Assembly: GCA_965113315.1 (NCBI GenBank)
Contig: OZ220374.1
Source of the DNA: Podarcis vaucheri
Lineage: Eukaryota
Direction: 5' to 3' (one strand)
DNA: 64,000 nucleotides
Position 1 is the first letter of the stretch. Each line of letters starts with the position of its first letter. Positions 1,866 through 34,600 of this stretch are shown piece by piece. The notes beneath the pieces were generated by a model. It did not search any database and was not told the origin of the DNA. It saw nothing but the letters and a program-made list of their open reading frames with translations. Made by a program: the position numbers and the translations under genes.

Positions 1866-3451
1866 GGCACATCAATAATTACAAGCACAATTTTACTAGA
1901 ATTAGATATCACCCTCAAAGGCAGAAAATGAAGGTTCAATTAATAGGGGAAATGAAAATTTAGACAGCAGTTCTTTATACAGCTGCTGCCCACAACTACC
2001 AATATTTTGGAGGCATAACAGACAGCAGCAATTTGGCATGCTGGAATGCTATGTATATATTTATATAGAGAGAGATAGGGAGGGAGAACAGCTTTTCCTG
2101 CAGTTGTTGAGACCTTGAGAATTGACTTGAGAAAGGATGCTGCCAGCGGGTTCCGTTTTTTCAGAGCCATCAGCCAGAAGTCCCTTACTGTCATATGCTG
2201 ATCTGAGGACATTTCAGTCTCCTTACCTTCATCACTCCTGCCCAAGTCAAATAAAAATGTGTATGGCATCTATGCATAACCAGTTGTGGTTTTTTTGGGC
2301 AAGGAACTTTTTCATTGGTTGGTTTAAGTATTTTTAAAAAACAATTTGTGGAATTGAAGGCTTCAAAAACATGATCAACAGGTATTCAGTTTTGAGATTT
2401 CAAATCCACATCCTGGAAAACAAATCATGTGCAAAGTAGCCTCCATGCGCATTTTTCCACGTATTGATTTATATACAGCTTTCCTTTTCTCTATACAGGC
2501 AAGAATGTCAACTCTGTCCTCCTGCATCAGTAACATCCTCTTCACATTTGTTAAGCAAGATTTCACTGTGGGGATATTCCATGACTGCCACCACAATTGC
2601 TCGGACAATCCTATTCACTGTTGCACATACTTTTCCTGGGGTGGACAATTTTCGATCTCCAAGGACAACTCAAGATAAAGGGCCAATTTAGAATCACAAC
2701 AATAAGACAATTGCCATGGGCAGCGTATTTCTCCTGAAAAGCATATTTAACATTTTGCATTGTATGATGTGAATTGTATTGTACACAAACAATATACACC
2801 TTTGTTAAGAGGACAACGGCTGCCTCTAGAATAGTCAACTTTTTTCTTTTTTTTGCAGTGTTCCCCCCCCCCCCAAGGAGGGGCATTGTTGTCTTCTGAG
2901 CTGCTGATGTAACGCCTTGCCATCGGCTTATACCTCAACGCTGGGGAGGGCTGGGTACTTTGCATAGATCACAGGTGAGTTTGGTCACTTAGGGATAACG
3001 TAATCCAACAGCCTGAAATGACTTGAGACTGGGACCCCAGAACCCACTGGCTGAGAGAGGCATGTCCCTGTCTTCCCAGGAGCTCCTTTGGAAGGAGTTG
3101 TTGCTAGTGTACTACAGTTATGAAGGGACACAGTAGAAGCTTGCAACAAAAAAGTGGAAAAGCCCTGCAGGATTTACCCAAGTGTTATGTCCTAAATCCT
3201 GCCCACATGGCCCTCAGATGCATTACTGGAACCGCAAACATTTTACAAACCAATTCTTTCCTTTCTGTTCCAAAAATAGTAGATGCTGCGCTGTTGCTTT
3301 AAACACAGCCCGTGGTATGCTGAATCCCAAGTACTCTGCTCACTGATCCAGCAGCTGCTAGGCTCCTTGGATCATGTGTCAGTTGGCTCTAACATGTAGT
3401 CCTTGCAACATCTAAAACACTCTTAGGATAAGCAGTTAAGTTTTAAAGAAC

Positions 3452-3472
3452 TTTATTTTCAACTTGTTTATT
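3452..3472 (-). terminator. Candidate poly(A) signals of the SSNA1-like gene
   Basis: Two AATAAA on the - strand (TTTATT at 3467-3472 and 3452-3457), 115-135 nt downstream of the stop codon. Confidence 0.6.
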
Positions 3473-3586
3473 GCTTCCATGATGTTCTTTATAAAAAGTA
3501 ACAATTGATACATAATAAAAACATTAATAAACCCACCAATACAAGATCAAAGTGTGACATTTCTTGTATATAACTTTTCACCAAGC

Positions 3587-3964
3587 CTAATGCTGCGTTT
3601 GTTGGAGCCCAAGTGTTTGAATATCCCCAGTCACATTTCTATTTATCGTTTTGTCTAAATTCCCCGTTTCGGCTTTCAAAACGTTCAGCAGCATCCTAGA
3701 GCTTTCCAAGATCTTCTCGTAAGTCAACGCTGCTTCGGCAAGAACTTCGTCAAGTTTCTTCTGTGCAGCATTTTTCTGTGCTAAGTTTTCACACACACAA
3801 TCCAGTTGTTTTGTCAGTGTCTCGATTTTATCCTGGAGCCTACTCTTTTCCTCTTCCGCTTCCCTGATCTGCTTGCTCACTTCTTCTCTTTGCATGTACA
3901 AGTCTTCTATATGTTTCACAAGTTCGTTATTATAGCCTTGTAGAACAGCCCCCTGGTGAGTCAT
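3587..3964 (-). CDS. SSNA1/NA14/DIP13-like coiled-coil microtubule-binding protein; intronless diverged paralog (retrogene), 125 aa
   Basis: MTHQGAVLQGYNNELVKHIEDL...YEKILESSRMLLNVLKAETGNL aligns without gaps to recalled human SSNA1 (hand count about 59/105 identical); single coding exon; Kozak AGGATGA with A at -3. Confidence 0.9.
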   Translation of the reverse strand: MTHQGAVLQGYNNELVKHIEDLYMQREEVSKQIREAEEEKSRLQDKIETLTKQLDCVCENLAQKNAAQKKLDEVLAEAALTYEKILESSRMLLNVLKAETGNLDKTINRNVTGDIQTLGLQQTQH

Positions 3965-4542
3965 CCTGCTGGCTCCACCCTTCAGAGGAGAAGGAAATGA
4001 TTCCTGCTTCCACCAGCTGATCTCACTACTGTCTGCCTGTATTTTATAATTTAAAAAGGAAAGAAAGAAAAATTGCTAAGTGCCTTTGAGCAACACTGTA
4101 AAACCAGCACATACATAATGGAAGCGTCAATATCAATTGTAGAAAATGTGATTAAGGAAACCATCTGAGTAAGTTTCCAAGGATCCTATTTTGCCATTAC
4201 TTTAACTTCTTCCACTCTGACATGCAAGTGGCCAATGGTATTTTCCAAGACGTTATGAAGCTGCTGATATTTTGAGACGGCTCTAAAATGTGTGCACTTA
4301 AGTGTGTGCACACATGTGTGCACTTAAGCTGTGTGCAAGAGAATGTGTAGATGCAAAATGTGTAGATGAATGATGCAGGAGTGAAATTATATAAATGCAT
4401 GTGCCTTTATAGGCATGGGAGAGCACTGAGGAAGAACAGAATAGGGGAAAGAATTGAAGGAAAGTTTAATCTCCCCTTGCCCTCCCTGCTTCTCTCACAA
4501 GGTTCTCATGCTAATAATAAGTCTCCGCCTCCCTTTAATTAA

Positions 4543-5040
4543 TTAATCCAGAATGCGGCAGCTAGACTGGTGACTGGGAGTACCACCAGAACCACATATC
4601 ACTGGTCCTGAGAGATCTGCATTGGCTCCCGGTTCGTTTCCGAGCACAATTCAAAGTATTGGTGCTGACCTTTAAAGCCCTAAACAGCCCCGGTCCTGTA
4701 TACCTGAAGGAGCGTCTCCACCCCCATCGTTCAGCCCGGACACTGAGATCTAGTGCCAAGGGCCTTCTGGCGGTTCCCTCATTGCAAGAAGTGAGGCTAC
4801 AGGGAACCAGACAGAGGATTTTCTCGGTAGTGGCGCCCACCCTGTGGAACACCCTCCTATCAGATGTGAAGGAAATAAGCAGCTATCCTATCTTTAAAAG
4901 ACATCTGAAGGCAGCCCTGTTTAGGGAAGTTTTTAATATTTAATGCTGTGTTGTTTTTAACACTCAATTGGGAGCTGCCCAGGGTGGCTGGGGAAACTCA
5001 GCCAGATGGGTGGGGTATAAATAATAAATTATTATTATTT
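4543..5040 (+). mobile_element. L2-clade LINE 3' fragment
   Basis: Encodes IQNAAARLVTG...[24 protein letters not shown]...LWNTL; (ATT)n tail. Confidence 0.85.
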
Positions 5041-5229
5041 GTCCTAGGATAGGGCCATTAAGGTGCTCTCTAGCTATAGGATGGCTTAGAAAAGTAAATA
5101 CACTGGCAACATGTGCACCAGACTATCCAGGATTGATTTACTGCAGTTTAAGTAAGGTTTCTGGGGAGATTTGCAGGGTTTCAGGGTGCTGAGAAGAATC
5201 CAAGCCTGCCTAAGCATTTGCTTCCTTAC

Positions 5230-5327
5230 CTCTATAGCGTCTGCTTAACTCGTACGTTTGCTGGTAATAGAAGGTAATGCACCATTAAGGCTACCTGTAC
5301 TAGTAGAAGCTCAACTGTGCTTAACTC
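5230..5327 (-). other. Putative non-coding 5' UTR exon 2 of the SSNA1-like transcript (98 nt)
   Basis: Minus-strand acceptor TGTATTTATTTAG|G ending at 5328 and strong donor GAG|GTAAGG at 5229. Confidence 0.5.
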
Positions 5328-5739
5328 CTAAATAAATACACTTAGGGTAATACAGCAAGTCTCCAGGGCACTTTTCTCCCACAATTTCCGGAAGGGCTGC
5401 CTTAGGATTCTGACCCTGGGGTTGAAAGGAGGGGAGTGAGAAATAGGCCAGCTACTAGAACTTTTCTGTCTGGAGGGCTCAGGCGTCTCACCTTCGAGGG
5501 AGAGGCCCGTTCCTGTGCAACCTACAAGAGAGTAGTCCCCAAACTCATCCAATCTCAGCCTGCAAACAGGGACTCTACTACTTTTGATTTTGTTGCTAGA
5601 GGAATCCTCCAGCACAGGCGCCTGCGCAGGAGTAAGTTTGGCTTTTGAAAGCGCAGCTTTTCAAGTGCCCTTGAGGGAGAAGATCCCTACGCTTTCCTGC
5701 ACATCCATAAAGGGGAAAGGGAGCTTCGCGCTGGCTGCA

Positions 5740-5954
5740 CAGTGGTACCTCGGGTTACATACGCTTCAGGTTGCAGACTCCGCTAACCCAGAAATTGTGC
5801 TTCAGGTTAAGAACATTGCTTCAGGATGAGAACAGAAATCGTGCTCTCGCACCGCGAGGCCCCATTAGCTAAAGTGGTGCTTCAGGTTAAGTACAGTTTC
5901 AGGTTAAGTACAGTCCTCCGGAACGAATTAAGTACTAAATCCCAGGTACCACTG
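5740..5954 (+). mobile_element. Tc1/mariner (Tigger-like) MITE
   Basis: TIRs CAGTGGTACCT...AGGTACCACTG; TA flank on the right; same family as copies at 12432, 15091, 26179 and 43713. Confidence 0.85.
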
Positions 5955-6303
5955 TATTCTCTCTCCCCTCAAAACCTTCCGCTAAAGCTGCAAAAGAAAA
6001 GCAAGCAGCGGCGGCGCCCAGCCACCAGTTGGGGGGGATGCCTCCCCAGCAACCCGCACTCCTTGCTTCGCCTCCGCGCCGCGGGCAGCTGTTTTCCCCC
6101 GGACCCAGAATAGACCAGCGGCCGCCCACGTGCTTCCCAGAATAGCTCCGTTGTCACCCTCCTTCCTGCCGCAGATCGCTCGGAATGAGGCGCCGAGAGG
6201 GGGCGGGGCCCGCAGCAGCCACTGGGCACCTCGGCGCGGACACAGGGAAGCGAACACCTCCGCGGCTGCGCACTGCGAGCGTTGAGGCCGCGGCGGCCCT
6301 TAC

Positions 6304-6500
6304 TTCTTCCCCTCCCGCAAGCAAACGCCCTGGCGGGTTGATGCGGCGTCAGCCCCGCCCAAGTCAAGCGTTGCGCGGCGCTTAGTTGTTTGGAAGGAAA
6401 GGCGCCTCTTGCTCAATAAGCCCGCCCGGGACTGTAGCTTCTGCAAAGGCTCGCTCGGAAATCTGTGCCCCGCTTCAGCTCGGTGGAGCTTGGAGTAAAT
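6304..6500 (-). other. Putative non-coding first exon of the SSNA1-like transcript (5' end uncertain)
   Basis: Minus-strand donor GAA|GTAAGG at 6303 inside the CpG island; TSS not determinable from sequence. Confidence 0.45.
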
Positions 6501-7896
6501 CCCATTTAGGTCCATAGGCGCTCACTCTCGGGCAAGCGGGATGGGATCGCGCCTTAAGTGCCCACAGAGGGCTCTGGGCGAAGCGTGTCTACCTAGTTAC
6601 CTGGGAACACGCATAACTGAACACGTTTTACTCCTGGATAGGAATGCTAATAGGACGTCTTCGTGTCCCCACCCCAGAAGGCTTTCCTTGGAGATTCAAA
6701 CTATTGTACAAACTACACACAGTGCAGAAACGGTTCTGGTGACGTTTTGTTCTAAATTACAGGGGCTTGGACTAGATGACCCCCGGGCTTCTTCCAACTC
6801 TATAATTCTACGAAAGTCCCATTCATAGCTACATTTTTCTAGTTCTCCATCCTCACCTCCGGTAACGCCCACTAAATAACTCCGGTAACTTCGGCTTCGT
6901 CGGGGATGGAACAAAACGCGTTTCTGTTATCCCAGCAGAGAACGTCGTTCAGCCGAAACAGGAACCAAAGAAAAACTCCAAGCCACCTAGCTTGAATTTA
7001 TCCACCACTTTACAAGCGTATTTCCGGAGCTCATTCTCGGAGGATTAAGATGGGGGGGGGGGGATACGGGAATAACCGATTGTGGCGGCGTTTCTCCTTC
7101 CCCTTGCGGAAATAGTCGAAGTGGAGACAGCGATCCGTGACGGAGACAGCCGGTGCCGCCCGAATGCGAGGGCTGCAGGCTGCACGGAGACTACCGATGT
7201 TTTCCGAAACTGCAGCGACCGAACAGAAAGCGAAGGGAGGCTAAAAAAAAACCAAACAACCCAAGGGGGGGGCTTGTCGGAGCCTGACGGAAATGGCCGC
7301 TGTTTCCCGAAGGAACTCGCCTTAGCATCCGGAAGGGAGGAGGCGGGGCATAGACTTAAGAAAGAGGGTGGGTTCAAAAAAGAAAAAAGGACTGGATGGA
7401 ATGGGAGGAGCTTTGGCGGAAAGAGCCGATATCAGCCGACGTTAAGCGAAGGCGGCGGCGTCCGAGTTTCCCGGATGTAGTCGGACGGCGGTAGTGTTGG
7501 GAGCTGGAGCTGTAGCTGAAGGGAGGGGGGAGGAGGTGTTGGCGGCGGCGGCGGAGGGCGAGCGAGCGAGCGAAGGCGGCCAGTGGCAGCAGCGGAGGGG
7601 ACGCGGCCGCCTTGTGCCTCCCGCGCCCCGCTGTGCGCGTGTGTCCGTCCTGCGGGGGCGCCTCTCCTTCTCGCTGGTGCGGAGAGGAGGAGATGGGCCC
7701 GTGAGCGCTGCTTCCCCTCACAGCCGAGCTGCCTGAGCCGCCCCTCCTCCGCCTCCTCCTCCCTCCCTCCCCCTCCTCCTCCTCCTCTTCCCTGTCCCCG
7801 GTCGGAGCGCTGCCTCCCCCTCCCCCCTCGGCGGCGCCCGTGGCCCGGCCGCGCCCTCCTGGTCCCCTCAGTCTCTCACACACAGGCCGGGCATTG

Positions 7897-7937
7897 ATGG
7901 TAATGTATGCGAGGAATAAGCAAAGACTCAATGATGG
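7897..7937 (+). CDS. WAC: WAC exon 1 coding part ([14 protein letters not shown])
   Basis: ATG at 7897; donor GG|GTAAAT. Confidence 0.95.
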
Positions 7938-10900
7938 GTAAATAACCCCCTTTCTCGTTCCGCCCTCCTCCCGTCTTACTCTCTCTCGTCTCTCTCTCTT
8001 TTTCCTACCCCCCCACCCCCACCCTCAATACCAACGGCCAGTAACGGTCGCTCGCTAACGTAACGTCTTTTTCTCCTCTCTTTCCAGCTGTCACGACCGC
8101 AAGGGGGACTCGCAGCCCTACCAGGTACCGACTTCTTCGCCCGCCGCAGCCCCACAAACCGATAGGCCCCTGCGGCGGCGGCAGTAACTGGAGTGTGGGA
8201 GGGCGAGCGAAACTACTCGAGCGCAGGCCTCGGCCGCCGCTGCAGGCCGCGGGGGAGGGGAGCCAACCGCTTCCCTTCGCTCTGCTCCGCGCGCGGCGGG
8301 CCGGGAGGGGGCAAGGGGGCGGCGGCGACTCTGGCTCTTGCTTGCTCTCTTACCCCCGCGACCGCGAGGGCTTGAGCGCGAGCTGAGGCGGCGAGAGGCG
8401 CTTGGCGGCGGGGCAAGGAAGCGAGAGGCCTAGGCCCGATGCGGGCCGCAGGAGGCGGAGGGCGGCATTGTTTTTCCTCCCCCCTCCCCCGAGCGAAACC
8501 CATGGGATGGCGGTAAGCGGCCGGAACCCGAGTCCGAAAAGGCCTCCCGAGTGCCGCTGACCGTCTTCCCTTGCCGTAGGAGACGAGATAGGAGCCGGGA
8601 TAGGTTCTAGGCCTTGGGCTTGTAGTAAATCCCGAAGGGAATTCTAGTTCATCAAACCCTTTCTGTCAACTGAGAAAACTTTAAATTGGGACCATGTTGA
8701 AGGTACCCCTGAAGAAATTTGGGAAATGGCCGGAGTGAAGCTGTGGGGGGGGGCGCGGGACATTTGAGGCTTTCCCTTTGTCATCTCCCCAGTGTTAAAA
8801 GGATAGGGAGGGCTGGAGGTGTAAATACGGTCATTTACAGGGGTTTTTTTGACCACTACACTTACATACCTGAGTGATCAGATGAAAGAGGCAGCTTTGA
8901 CAACTGGAGGCTGCAGTCAGTGACAGCACATCTAATGTAAACATTCATCACACAGCCTTGTGAAAAGGGGCATGGAGAGAGGTTCTGGACAAGGCCCTGT
9001 TGTGTTTAGTATAACACAAGGTGGTGTGGATGCTACAAAGCTGCACATTCCACTCGTACTACTACAAAATCTATCAAGCCCTTTGATTCTTTTGCCAGAA
9101 ATCTCCCCGCTCTTTAAAGTGCGTAACAATCTCAGTTCATAGATGAGTGGTACCACTGGTTAACATTGACTATTTGGTTAGATTGTGTGGGATATATTTT
9201 TAAGGGGGGAAATGGAGAGGATGTGTTATTGAAACTGGTATCAAATGCCTTAAAGATTTTTCAGTGTCACCTGTATATGGTAAAAGGTATTCTCCATTTA
9301 GTAAATAAATAATAGCATCCTGCAGATGAAATAATTCTGTTGGACTGTGTGCATAGTCCAAGGTGTTTCAGCCAAGGTGGTACTTAAGACTTATTTGAGA
9401 ATAGTCTCCCATTAAACACAATGAAATATACATAGTTATGATGTAGCACATCAAAAAGAAGCTTGACTTGGTTGAACATAGGCATCGTGTTAACTGTACT
9501 ACTCTGAATAAATCCCAATACTGTATTGGAAATAGAATGTTTGTAATAAATTGGAATTAGGGTTGAAAAACCCAGAATTACTTGCTATTAAGTTTATAAA
9601 ATGACATAGCACTAGTTAGGATCTAGACAATTGTGAAACTAGTTCCATGACTTAAGAGGATTTCTAGGCTTGATTTATTTTGGACAGCAGCTTCATGCTG
9701 CATGGCAAACTGTTTTTAAAAAAGATATTTCAAAACACAGCTTGAGAAATCTGTACTTGTTATTTCTTTCAGGCTCTTAAATACTCATCAAAGAGTCACC
9801 CCAGTGGTGGTGATCACCGGCATGACAAGATGCGAGACACCACAGACCCTTCACCACCAAATAAAATGTTGCGGCGATCTGATAGCCCTGAAAACAAGTA
9901 TGGTGACAACACTGGACACAGTAAAGCTAAAAGCATGCATACTCACAGAGTTAGAGAAAGGGATGGTGGTGAGTTAAACTTTAACTGATTTGTATTCAAA
10001 ATACTGCTAGTAATTGAAATAAATCTTGCACCAAAACAAAAGCACATTCATTGGGGTGAAGAATTTACCTCACCATTATTTCAGTTCATTCACAACACTG
10101 CCACAGGTTCCTTATCCCTGTGTTAGGGGGCTTTAGACCTGGCTGCTTTTGTTGTCTAGTCAGGATGGCTTCATAAACCTGGGCTTTTTGTAGAAACTGC
10201 CCTCCAGTGCAATCTAGCATGGTGGCGTTTGAAGGAAATGATACTGTGTCTTTTGGTAGGCAGGCCTTCATGTGCCTGATATAAAATTTGTTCTTCCCGT
10301 TAAGTACAGTTTACAAGAGAGACAGTGTAGTGTAATGTCCCTGTACTGGAGGTATCTGGCTTCAGATACCCTTACTCAAGCTTAAAGCTTGCTGGATGGC
10401 CTTGGGAAGCTACATATCTCACTCAGCCAAACCTTGCATTCAGGGAAATTATGAAGATAATGGGGTTTACCATAAATACTCTGAAAAGAGCTATATGTCG
10501 AAAGATAGGGATACAAATGTTATGAATAAAATAAAGTGAACAAATAGTGAAGTAAGCAATATATAAAACAAATTCTTAATGCAGTGAGTTAACACAGTTC
10601 TTGTGTCTTGGTTTTATTAAACAAAATTTATATACCATGTTATTGTAATAAAACCTATTACGTGGTTATTTGAGATTTGTAAGAATAGAAATAACAGTAA
10701 TTCCATGAAGCATTTTCTTTAATGCTAAGGCTATTACAAATCAGCATTTAAGTTTCTTGGGACAGTGAGGAGGTTTTTGTTTTTGACAAATTATCATGTT
10801 AGGTATCCTTACTGTCACATAGGTATCATATTGTTGTAGTTAAATGCTCTGATAATGACTGCTATAGAAGAAGAAACTTTTCAGGTTCTGTTATATTTCA

Positions 10901-31600: not shown

Positions 31601-34600
31601 TGGTGTTTTATTTTACAACTAACAATAGTTACTGTATTTGTGTATAAGACCGTCGATCTCCTTAAAAAAGCTCAACAAGTTTGGATGCAGTAAATATATT
31701 GGTGCTTTGAATATTTAATTAAAAAAGCGAAGTTGCTCTGTTTGAAGTTAAAATATTGATTTCTTAATTTTGGGTTCAAAAAAATAGGGGTTGTCTTATA
31801 CATGGGGGCATCTTATACACGAGAAGATACGGTATTTTCTTACAACCAGGCCTTTCATCTATTTATTTCATGTTATACATCTTACAGACTTTGTTTTTTT
31901 TATAAAAAACAGCAACAACCCCTATATAGTTCAAAATATTGCTGTACAAGTCTCTCCTATGACTGGCAGCCATGACAATTGATTAAGTACATCAGATTAT
32001 TTTTATTTTTATTTTCTTTCCAGTTATGCTCCTTTATATTTCACTTTGCCTTGGCTTTGCAACCCTTTGGTTGCAAAGTAGCAACCAAAAATGAAATTCC
32101 AGTGACTGATAATTACTGGCAGACTAGAGCAGTTTATATTCACAAGGTGATGGTGGTTATGTTGAGCTGGTACAGTGTAAGGGCAGTATTCTACCAACTT
32201 CTCCATCAGCATAAGAATTGTCACTAGCACAATGAAACTTTGCCCATCCCCCTCTATGCACACCCCACCACCCCACCATTTCCCTGAATCTGTTCTGGGG
32301 GGTTGGGGAAAATCTAGAACAGATTTAAAGGGGTGTACGAGAAGGGGGAGAGTTCTTCTGTGCAAGCAGACAGCTTTGTGCTGATGAAACTACTTAGCAC
32401 TAAATTGAATAAAATCCTAAGTATTCATACGTGAGAAATGATCAAATTGGCTCTTTTGCATAAAAGTCCTTTGGCTCAAATGTATCTGATAGAGGGTCTT
32501 GATTTGGCTTAGAGATTAACTGTAGTGCTTATATCTAGATATTTAATATTAACTTATTTAAAAGAAACGTTGGCTGAAATCCAACACAATGTGAGTTGGC
32601 ATCTGCAATCTGACTACCCCTTCCTCTTCTGTCTGCCTGCAGTCCCCCACCCACCTGCTCCAGAGTTTTGAACAAGGCATAGTGTCAAGGGTTAGCTGCA
32701 GAGGGAAGAGACAAAAGGAAAATTGTGTTGTTCAAGCAGAAGTCTGTAACGTTGGCAGATACACAACTGAATACCACCCTTCGTATATATACTTAAAAAG
32801 CAACACACACCATTTTTATCCACCCTAATTCTCACAGCCCAGCATTTGTGAGTGTGTCTTTGAACTTATATTGCAGTGGTGGTCTTTAAGGCATACTTAA
32901 TATTCTACATTTGACTCCCAGATTTTATAATGCTCCGATTTTAGATTGTTCTAGTGGTGAATGTGTTGACCTACATTTATGCTAACTTTTAGCTTTCAGA
33001 ATAGAAATGGCCTGGCCATTTTGAAGTACACATAGTATTTTCTCATTTGGAAGGATTTTTGTGCAAATAAGTTGCCTAGTAGTATTTCATGGATTGTTGT
33101 AATTTAGCTGTCAATGTGGTACTAGGATTACTTTTGAATTAGGTGCTCCCATTTTGAGTGAGGAAAATGCACATTTCCTACTTTTATAGTAATTGCGGGT
33201 TTTTTGGATAATGATGTATATACTTCAGCACTCTGGATCATGTGAAAATGCCCTACTTTGAAATCTCTGTAAATAGGTAGTCTCAGATATTATTATGTAT
33301 GAAAAACAGACTTAAATGGATTTTAAATGCCTTAATATAGATATAGGTTGAACAATAAGTTTCTCTTTGTGTTTTGTAGAAGTTTGAGTCATATTTAGGT
33401 AAAATCCTTTCTTTTCATTGGTTATATAGCAACTTTACAGGCTAATCCTATTTAGCTGAGCTAACAGAGCCATGCATAATTTTTAAGGGAACAGGAAACA
33501 CTTCAAATCAATACATATCAGGATTATAATTTTATATTGGTCTGTCATCTGCTACATGATATAGTAAGCATTTTTACTTGTATCTGAAAATTAATATAAA
33601 CCTTTAATTTTATTTTTTTAGGGACCAGTTACTCTCCACAAGAAAATTCTCATAACCATAGTGCTCTTCATAGCTCAAATTCACACTCTTCTAATCCTAG
33701 CAATAATCCAAGTAAAACATCAGATGCAGTAAGTATCTACGGTGAATTATGCAACTTTGTTTTACTTTATTTAACCCACAGACAGTGCTTTCTCTGGCTA
33801 ATTTTCAATTAATGCAAATTATTAGAGCAAGACTGGTCAGACTGTGTTCCACATTCAGTATTTGAGTTCATAGCATGTAAATTGAGTGATAAATACATAT
33901 TTCAGAAAGCTATTCTCTTGCATATTGTTTTGAACCCATTGTTTCTTCAAGTCTGGTATGGCAGTAGGTTTAAAAACTCTGGCAAATAGAACATTTCTAA
34001 GAGCCATGAAGGAAGATATAGGTGTACTGTTGGAAATATTTATACCCGTTGCAGATGTAACATTGGCGTGTGTTTAGGGAGTAGACTGTGGGATTGTGCA
34101 TTCTGTCCCTTGGTTTGTCTGATTGAATGTTCAATTCCAATTTAAAGAAATTTGGACAATCCCAGATTCCTTTTCACAACATTGATACAACCCAGTTTGG
34201 AAACGGAATTTGGATTGTCCTCAGATTGAGCTAGAAGTAATTATGATCAGACTTAAACCAAGGCAGGTGGGAAGGCATGCACAAAAACATGATCCAGTGC
34301 TGGAAGTCTAGTTGGCATTGTCTGCACTGACCTTAAATCTCTATGAAGACAAGGGTTCCTCTTACTAAATTAAAGTATATGTTAAAGGACAAACTGGAAA
34401 GAGGGGTGGTGTTTTTGTGTGTGTATAATATATTAAGCTGATTCCATCACTTTTGCCCTCCCTTCCCCAAGTCCTATGATTCTGCAGATGACTGGTCTGA
34501 GCACATTAGTTCTTCTGGCAAAAAGTACTACTATAACTGCCGAACAGAAGTTTCCCAGTGGGAAAAACCAAAAGAATGGCTTGAAAGGTAAGTACTAATA

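Follow-up and report, generated by a model that had tools for sequence, protein, structure and literature searches.

Fablet et al. are said to have described, in 2009, retrogenes that gained 5′ UTR introns. The available part of PMC4772013 gives 11 human and 12 mouse retrocopies that face another gene head to head, no more than 2 kb away, and reports 36 selectively preserved chicken retrogenes, a list which may include the SSNA1-like copy studied here. Use of a neighbour's bidirectional promoter by a retrogene is listed as a mechanism in the accessible text of PMC5470649, and orphan retrogenes that replaced their parent are described in the available portion of PMC3548309. Excerpts of PMC10227977 present human WAC-AS1 as the head-to-head antisense RNA of WAC at 10p12.1, and excerpts of PMC12350680 report the structure of C. 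elegans SSNA-1 (9DSM) and a microtubule/centriole role for its family.

Our analysis of a 64,000-nucleotide stretch of Podarcis vaucheri DNA (the window) revealed a locus of this kind. It holds a copy of SSNA1 without introns that is likely an ancient retrogene and whose mRNA very probably comes from the CpG island of WAC, on the opposite strand and across one 2,820-nt intron. A literature search, with subscription journals mostly outside its scope, found no description of this copy and no paper naming both WAC-AS1 and SSNA1. The supplementary files of PMC5577775 and PMC10195156, two papers on lncRNA relics in which genes may be given solely by id, showed neither name, and SSNA1 was likewise missing from those of PMC12954441, PMC4290089 and PMC6321700.

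Splice structure of the SSNA1-like mRNA

Four of 24 listed runs were aligned to positions 3001–7800 of the window, two as raw reads (X23 and X21, with only 12% and 6% of the reads used) and two as contigs (X1 and X13). The run search yielded no matching run recorded as RNA; X1 and X13 were taken as RNA by inference, and their spliced contigs argue for it. The runs derive from related organisms (A and B) rather than from the species of the window, and their tissues are unstated. Fifteen of the 35 splice joints were displayed, and our statements on joints cover those 15.

All four runs carry the joint 6857>4036, which removes a single 5′ UTR intron of 2,820 nt with GT..AG ends from the minus strand (4037–6856, donor GAG/GTGAGG at 6856), the acceptor in X13 lying about 4 nt off. 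This is the sole canonical joint among the 15 of 35 displayed. It is covered by 9 reads with 7 starts in X23, all oriented opposite to the WAC reads, by 42 reads with 16 starts in X21, and by a contig of depth 83.7 in X1. X13, from the second organism, contributes a single 940-nt contig joining 7217–6856 to 4031–3460, with the same donor region and with either a small indel or an acceptor shifted onward by about 4 nt. Moreover, a Podarcis lilfordi gene model (P0189) crosses the same junction, from 6925–6881 to 4038–4009. At 4027–4030, 9 of 12 reads in X23 and 42 of 56 in X21 were assigned to this joint; minor leaders are possible, given the remaining acceptor-side reads (3 of 12 and 14 of 56, respectively) and the 20 of 35 joints outside the displayed set.

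The resulting mRNA, entirely on the minus strand, begins with a non-coding exon 1 (6857–7330, drawn from RNA coverage and approximate at its 5′ end), followed by a second exon with an untranslated start of 72 nt (3965–4036), the intronless ORF of 125 aa (3587–3964, supported by the ORF list, protein matches and RNA) and a 3′ UTR (3457–3586) with AATAAA at 3472 and 3457 and contig ends at 3460 and 3490. Start sites were estimated from the end of RNA-seq coverage, not from cap-site data: exon 1 has a depth of 80–125 in X21, contigs stop at 7217 and 7250, reads thin out at 7260–7330, and a low tail extends to about 7550.

The leader is non-coding, as judged from an in-frame stop 87 nt before the ATG of the SSNA1-like ORF, a 15-codon upstream ORF at 7034 and the exon 1 indels by which the runs differ (1, 3 and 13 nt); the sole displayed indel within the ORF measures 6 nt. 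A translated N-terminal extension is ruled out by the same stop together with the frame-breaking indels. A search for structured RNA at 3300–7800 gave no Rfam match at E up to 1. We regard the database models of 78–90 aa that lack part of the ORF (P0012, P0039, P0042–P0053) as annotation artefacts: coverage shows no break, and the displayed joints include none of this kind.

The original prediction had drawn a three-exon leader with junctions 6304>5327 and 5230>4036. The four minus-strand splice motifs behind it were all found in place (GAA/GTAAGG at 6303, TATTTATTTAG ending at 5328, GAG/GTAAGG at 5229 and an acceptor ending at 4037, 72 nt before the ATG at 3964, whose string had been given one T short), but only the acceptor at 4037, one site of the four, is in use. 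Neither junction is among the 15 of 35 displayed joints; instead, the RNA shows one leader exon ending at 6857, with its donor at 6856 outside the region that the prediction had covered. As the main isoform the three-exon leader is ruled out by RNA joints and depth, and it is extremely improbable that it represents a real mRNA or a substantial tissue-specific isoform. Although its motifs exist, the hexamer GTAAGG is over-represented (2 observed vs 0.22 expected), low-depth contigs occur around 5069–5632, and 20 of 35 joints are undisplayed with tissues unstated, both raw runs show a depth of 0 in all four bins of 5081–5720, whereas the direct joint has 51 reads. Depth is also 0 to 0.3 at 6201–6360. 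Furthermore, low-depth contigs pass 5328 unspliced (5252–5508 in X1, 5305–5632 in X13), and we treat the predicted 98-nt middle exon (5230–5327, minus strand) as intron on the basis of raw depth and these contigs. The order GTAAG, acceptor, GTAAG, as in the inner sites, recurs in 90 of 210 overlapping 2,464-nt background windows, and in 182 of 210 with GTRAG, while about 13 acceptors as weak as that at 5328 are expected in the span. By themselves, the inner three sites would be weak evidence. A transcription start just upstream of about 4040, which the prediction had named, besides absence of its two junctions, as an outcome that would speak against it, was not found: raw depth is 0 at 4121–4440, so a start just before the acceptor at 4037 is excluded.

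Two transposable elements fall within the 4037–6856 intron, as had been proposed for the predicted introns. One is a MITE (5740–5954) with 14-nt terminal inverted repeats, 13 of 14 bases being inverted-complementary, recognised by its repeat-level depth. The other is the 3′ fragment of an L2-like LINE on the plus strand (4544–5039), identified by repeat depth with loose ends at 4544 and 5039; we take it to be L2 from a C-terminal motif, and Pfam assigned no family to the piece. Both have many relatives in the reads, 90–99% alike, and are likely later passengers in the intron. The minus strand also has a strong donor-like AAG/GTGAGA at 5491 and a strong acceptor-like site at 5988, with no use among the displayed joints. 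Elsewhere in the window, at about 290–610 on the minus strand, lies a SINE-like repeat that presumably resembles the squamate Sauria SINE.

The CpG island shared with WAC

A continuous CpG-rich island, with an observed/expected ratio of at least 0.6 throughout by CpG computation, spans about 5700–8700 and contains both exon 1 and the first exons of WAC. The 5′ end of the plus-strand neighbour was placed at 7481–8124 from RNA and ORFs: its RNA begins in bin 7481–7640, its start codon is at 7897, and a short exon 2 lies at 8088–8124. We take this neighbour to be WAC from its N-terminus and from a WW-domain exon at 34442–34588 (PF00397, E 3e-12).

In the stranded run X23, the depth over the ORF region is 9.6–17.2 in one orientation and 0–0.13 in the other, whereas at 7641–7800 the orientation is reversed (0 vs 17.9). 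These opposite read orientations indicate that the SSNA1-like gene and WAC are transcribed away from each other. The WAC signal in X23 is 4.7 and then 17.9 from bin 7481–7640 onward, the bin in which the two signals meet, and the main minus-strand 5′ ends fall at about 7220–7330, as estimated from coverage. Exon 1 (about 7300–6857) is thus read in the direction opposite to WAC, from a point no more than a few hundred bases away, and the two genes form a bidirectional pair on opposite strands, with coverage-based 5′ ends within about 1 kb and a common CpG island. The SSNA1-like mRNA starts in the WAC CpG island; between one shared promoter and two starts in one island, we regard the pair as a candidate for sharing. 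An ETS/GABPA-type motif readable on both strands (7329–7335, by consensus match only) sits at the estimated minus-strand start, with a second at 7471. Hence the proposal that a spliced non-coding leader ties the retro-ORF to the WAC island was borne out. Promoter capture, the main inference of the prediction, holds as well, more directly than had been suggested, although the exon model that accompanied it was wrong.

Leaders in birds and in the worm lizard Rhineura were read, at the protein level only, from N-terminal extensions of database gene models. The Rhineura model matches 6163–6062 (73.5% amino acid identity over 34 codons, E 2e-17) and then 4051–3965, which would place its first exon in the proximal island and its acceptor about 14 nt upstream of 4037. 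The window has AA at the Rhineura-type acceptor point, and its pyrimidine tract ends 14 nt before the AG in use (4037–4062, minus strand); the acceptor likely slid downstream. Among birds, residues 32–53 of the goose model P0199 match the antisense strand at 7943–7878 (95% across 22 residues, E 4e-9). Of 10 five-residue N-termini tested, those of the cormorant, quail and swan models match the 64 kb exactly at one place only, 7894, just before a donor-like site at 7879; the other 7 had no exact match in the window, and the extensions of the Lerista, Varanus, Anolis and several bird models did not map to the leader upstream of exon 2. Bird models whose first parts differ come together in a common block, which starts 21–23 codons ahead of the start Met in all 9 models measured; the corresponding distance here is 24 codons. 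Overall, the worm lizard and bird models have other first exons of the same island spliced in 63–86 nt before the start codon, which suggests a fixed acceptor position with donors changing across lineages. The bird gene, too, appears to lie head to head with WAC.

The gene could alternatively have its own promoter in the proximal island (about 6200–6450), with WAC merely a neighbour and the WAC-side start a lacertid add-on. GC boxes at 6427, 6360, 6200 and 6127, a ZNF143-like motif at 6437, the use of a single-copy conserved stretch as first exon in the Rhineura model, and a few X21 reads at 6041–6200, with a depth of 0 in the bins of 6361–6680, would fit such a promoter. However, X21 depth there is about 5 compared with 80–125 over exon 1, the displayed joints include none from this region, bird models start next to WAC exon 1, and there is no break between this island and that of WAC; we therefore consider this reading very unlikely. 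A proximal start at about 6200–6450 would be at most a minor or lineage-specific second start. The conserved non-coding stretch itself (6026–6210, minus strand) is single-copy and, from its Rhineura homology and its depth in X21, a candidate minor first exon, with a weak donor at 6025 and no joint displayed. It is conserved relative to Rhineura about as well as the ORF (78%), and could be a second promoter or first exon.

For the start in the WAC island, the following course of events may be proposed. Reverse-transcribed SSNA1 mRNA would have inserted 2–3 kb upstream of WAC, head to head, before the lizard–bird split. Splicing could then have linked the divergent transcript of WAC to the ORF, using a donor within the island and an acceptor some 70 nt ahead of the ATG, and this splice, together with a poly(A) signal, would have yielded a stable mRNA. 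Later the acceptor position was presumably kept while the first exon turned over, with 6857 in Podarcis, a 6026-like donor in the Rhineura model and, in bird models, donors next to WAC exon 1 as well as at other places. Insertion of the MITE and L2 into the intron would have come later.

The intronless copy and its parent

The 125-aa ORF is 98% identical to Podarcis muralis P0001 (named SSNA1), shares 57–78% identity with full-length SSNA1-like proteins of other squamates, turtles and birds, and matches the C. elegans SSNA-1 structure (PDB 9DSM) with E 4e-8. Alignment to 9DSM showed no identical residues at the positions of the C. elegans key residues Y15, R18 and Y97, and a Pfam search of the ORF gave weak coiled-coil matches only. 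The protein is predicted still to be a coiled coil of centrioles or microtubules, likely with relaxed constraint. Six nucleotides (2 codons, in frame, near 3642) that are missing from the window ORF are present in all four RNA runs and in 127-aa lacertid proteins.

A genome search returned two SSNA1 matches, the window copy on contig C33 and the parent at a putatively unlinked locus on a different contig of 35.6 kb (G000:C173). GT..AG introns divide the coding sequence of the parent into three exons (52, 200 and 102 nt), and its protein agrees at 103–104 of 104 residues with each of three canonical SSNA1 proteins of Podarcis. Aligned to the parent, the window ORF is colinear and runs unbroken, without indels, across both intron positions, with 60 of 104 residues identical. 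Compared with SSNA1/NA14/DIP13, of the same family and with a colinear coiled coil, the copy is intronless, lies on another contig, has a GC3 of 0.47 vs 0.87 and belongs to a faster-evolving group: mean pairwise identity is 73% among 14 like-copies vs 85% among 11 canonical copies, which cover a wider range of taxa, and like-copies appear to evolve faster than canonical SSNA1. Of the displayed read differences in the ORF, 8 of 11 are silent, with most differences undisplayed, and the ORF is expressed in 4 of 4 runs. It is intact, under purifying selection and expressed, as a retrogene is.

The copy is likely an ancient retrogene, with intron loss as the one sign of retroposition; a poly(A) remnant or target-site duplication is not expected at its age. 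That it arose instead by duplication at the DNA level, followed by loss of both introns, is highly improbable, and promoter sharing would still be real. Age would erase poly(A) and target-site marks in either case, and intron status was read in the window species, not in birds or turtles; yet both introns are gone exactly, without indels, and no second SSNA1-like sequence occurs in the 20 kb fetched upstream.

Simple and tandem repeats make up the introns of the parent (L003:1-10000, G000:C173). In intron 1, numerous partial, diverged copies of the beginning of exon 2 occur together with a GC-rich array of repeats in which CCAAT- and GC-box-like words abound. The database names in Podarcis muralis are swapped, the retro-type P0001 being called 'SSNA1' and the parent P0087 'SSNA1-like'.

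Age, birds and known systems

A protein tree of 71 rows separated 33 like-copies from 38 canonical copies by a 100/100 branch, with P0072 grouping with snake like-copies. A 43-row tree with mammals, alligator and amphioxus added again placed the like-copies, here 12, in one clade (100/100). The like-copies of lizards, snakes, turtles and birds are, on these trees, one orthologous clade. Both SSNA1 types are present in geckos, lizards, snakes and turtles, and the copy therefore likely predates the lizard–bird split, about 280 million years ago; neither tree dated its origin against the divergence of mammals. The 120 best profile matches included no like-copy from a mammal or an amphibian, and no crocodilian, tuatara, mammal or amphibian like-copy was named among the matches listed.

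In birds, the WAC-linked retrogene may have replaced the parental SSNA1, a tentative reading to which we give somewhat less than even weight. Among the best 120 of 1133 matches to turtle canonical SSNA1 there was no named bird, while alligator, mammals, fish and molluscs were present. One bird like-type cluster has 271 members, and 80 of 80 rows of bird clusters are like-type, but these clusters were reached via like-type queries, which makes the count circular. Bird assemblies tend to miss GC-rich genes with repeat introns on small contigs; the lizard parent, with its GC3 of 0.87, simple-repeat introns and small contig, is such a gene, so that loss and non-assembly of the bird parent look alike. 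A strongly diverged bird parent would escape the match list as well. Bird proteins named SSNA1, among those listed, are of the WAC-linked type. The original prediction had raised mammalian WAC-AS1 as a possible ancestral host or a relic. That mammalian WAC-AS1 is a relic of the SSNA1-like gene is unlikely, and the joint reading, in which the parent was replaced in birds and WAC-AS1 is the transcription unit that survived loss of the ORF in mammals, is quite unlikely.

The mechanism is a textbook way of switching on retrogenes, and this case is unusually old and traceable. One retro-ORF and one acceptor position are combined with different first exons of the same island in lacertids, a worm lizard and birds, which offers a natural series for how divergent promoter transcripts turn into, and stay, mRNAs. 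Since databases name the copy plain 'SSNA1' in several lizards and birds, cross-species work on SSNA1 may compare paralogues. If birds do lack the parent, an avian centriole protein would be a retrogene product under the WAC promoter; this, or a decayed ORF within WAC-AS1, would account for an avian centriole gene and for a human lncRNA that has been studied intensively.

As in the retrogenes attributed to Fablet et al. (2009), a new untranslated exon and intron join a promoter to a retro-ORF; here there is one intron, and the transposons are passengers. WAC-AS1, likened to our gene by description alone in the available text, is also head to head with WAC, but non-coding. The orphan retrogenes described in the accessible part of PMC3548309 have a possible parallel in birds, where only like-type proteins were among the matches listed, whereas this lizard, turtles and snakes retain an intact parent. 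As far as the available part of PMC4772013 describes it, the HTR7P1/HEBP1 pair resembles our locus in its head-to-head arrangement and its start in a CpG island. The locus described here differs in being non-mammalian, very old and intact across squamates, turtles and birds, with a first exon that seems to turn over while the acceptor position is kept.
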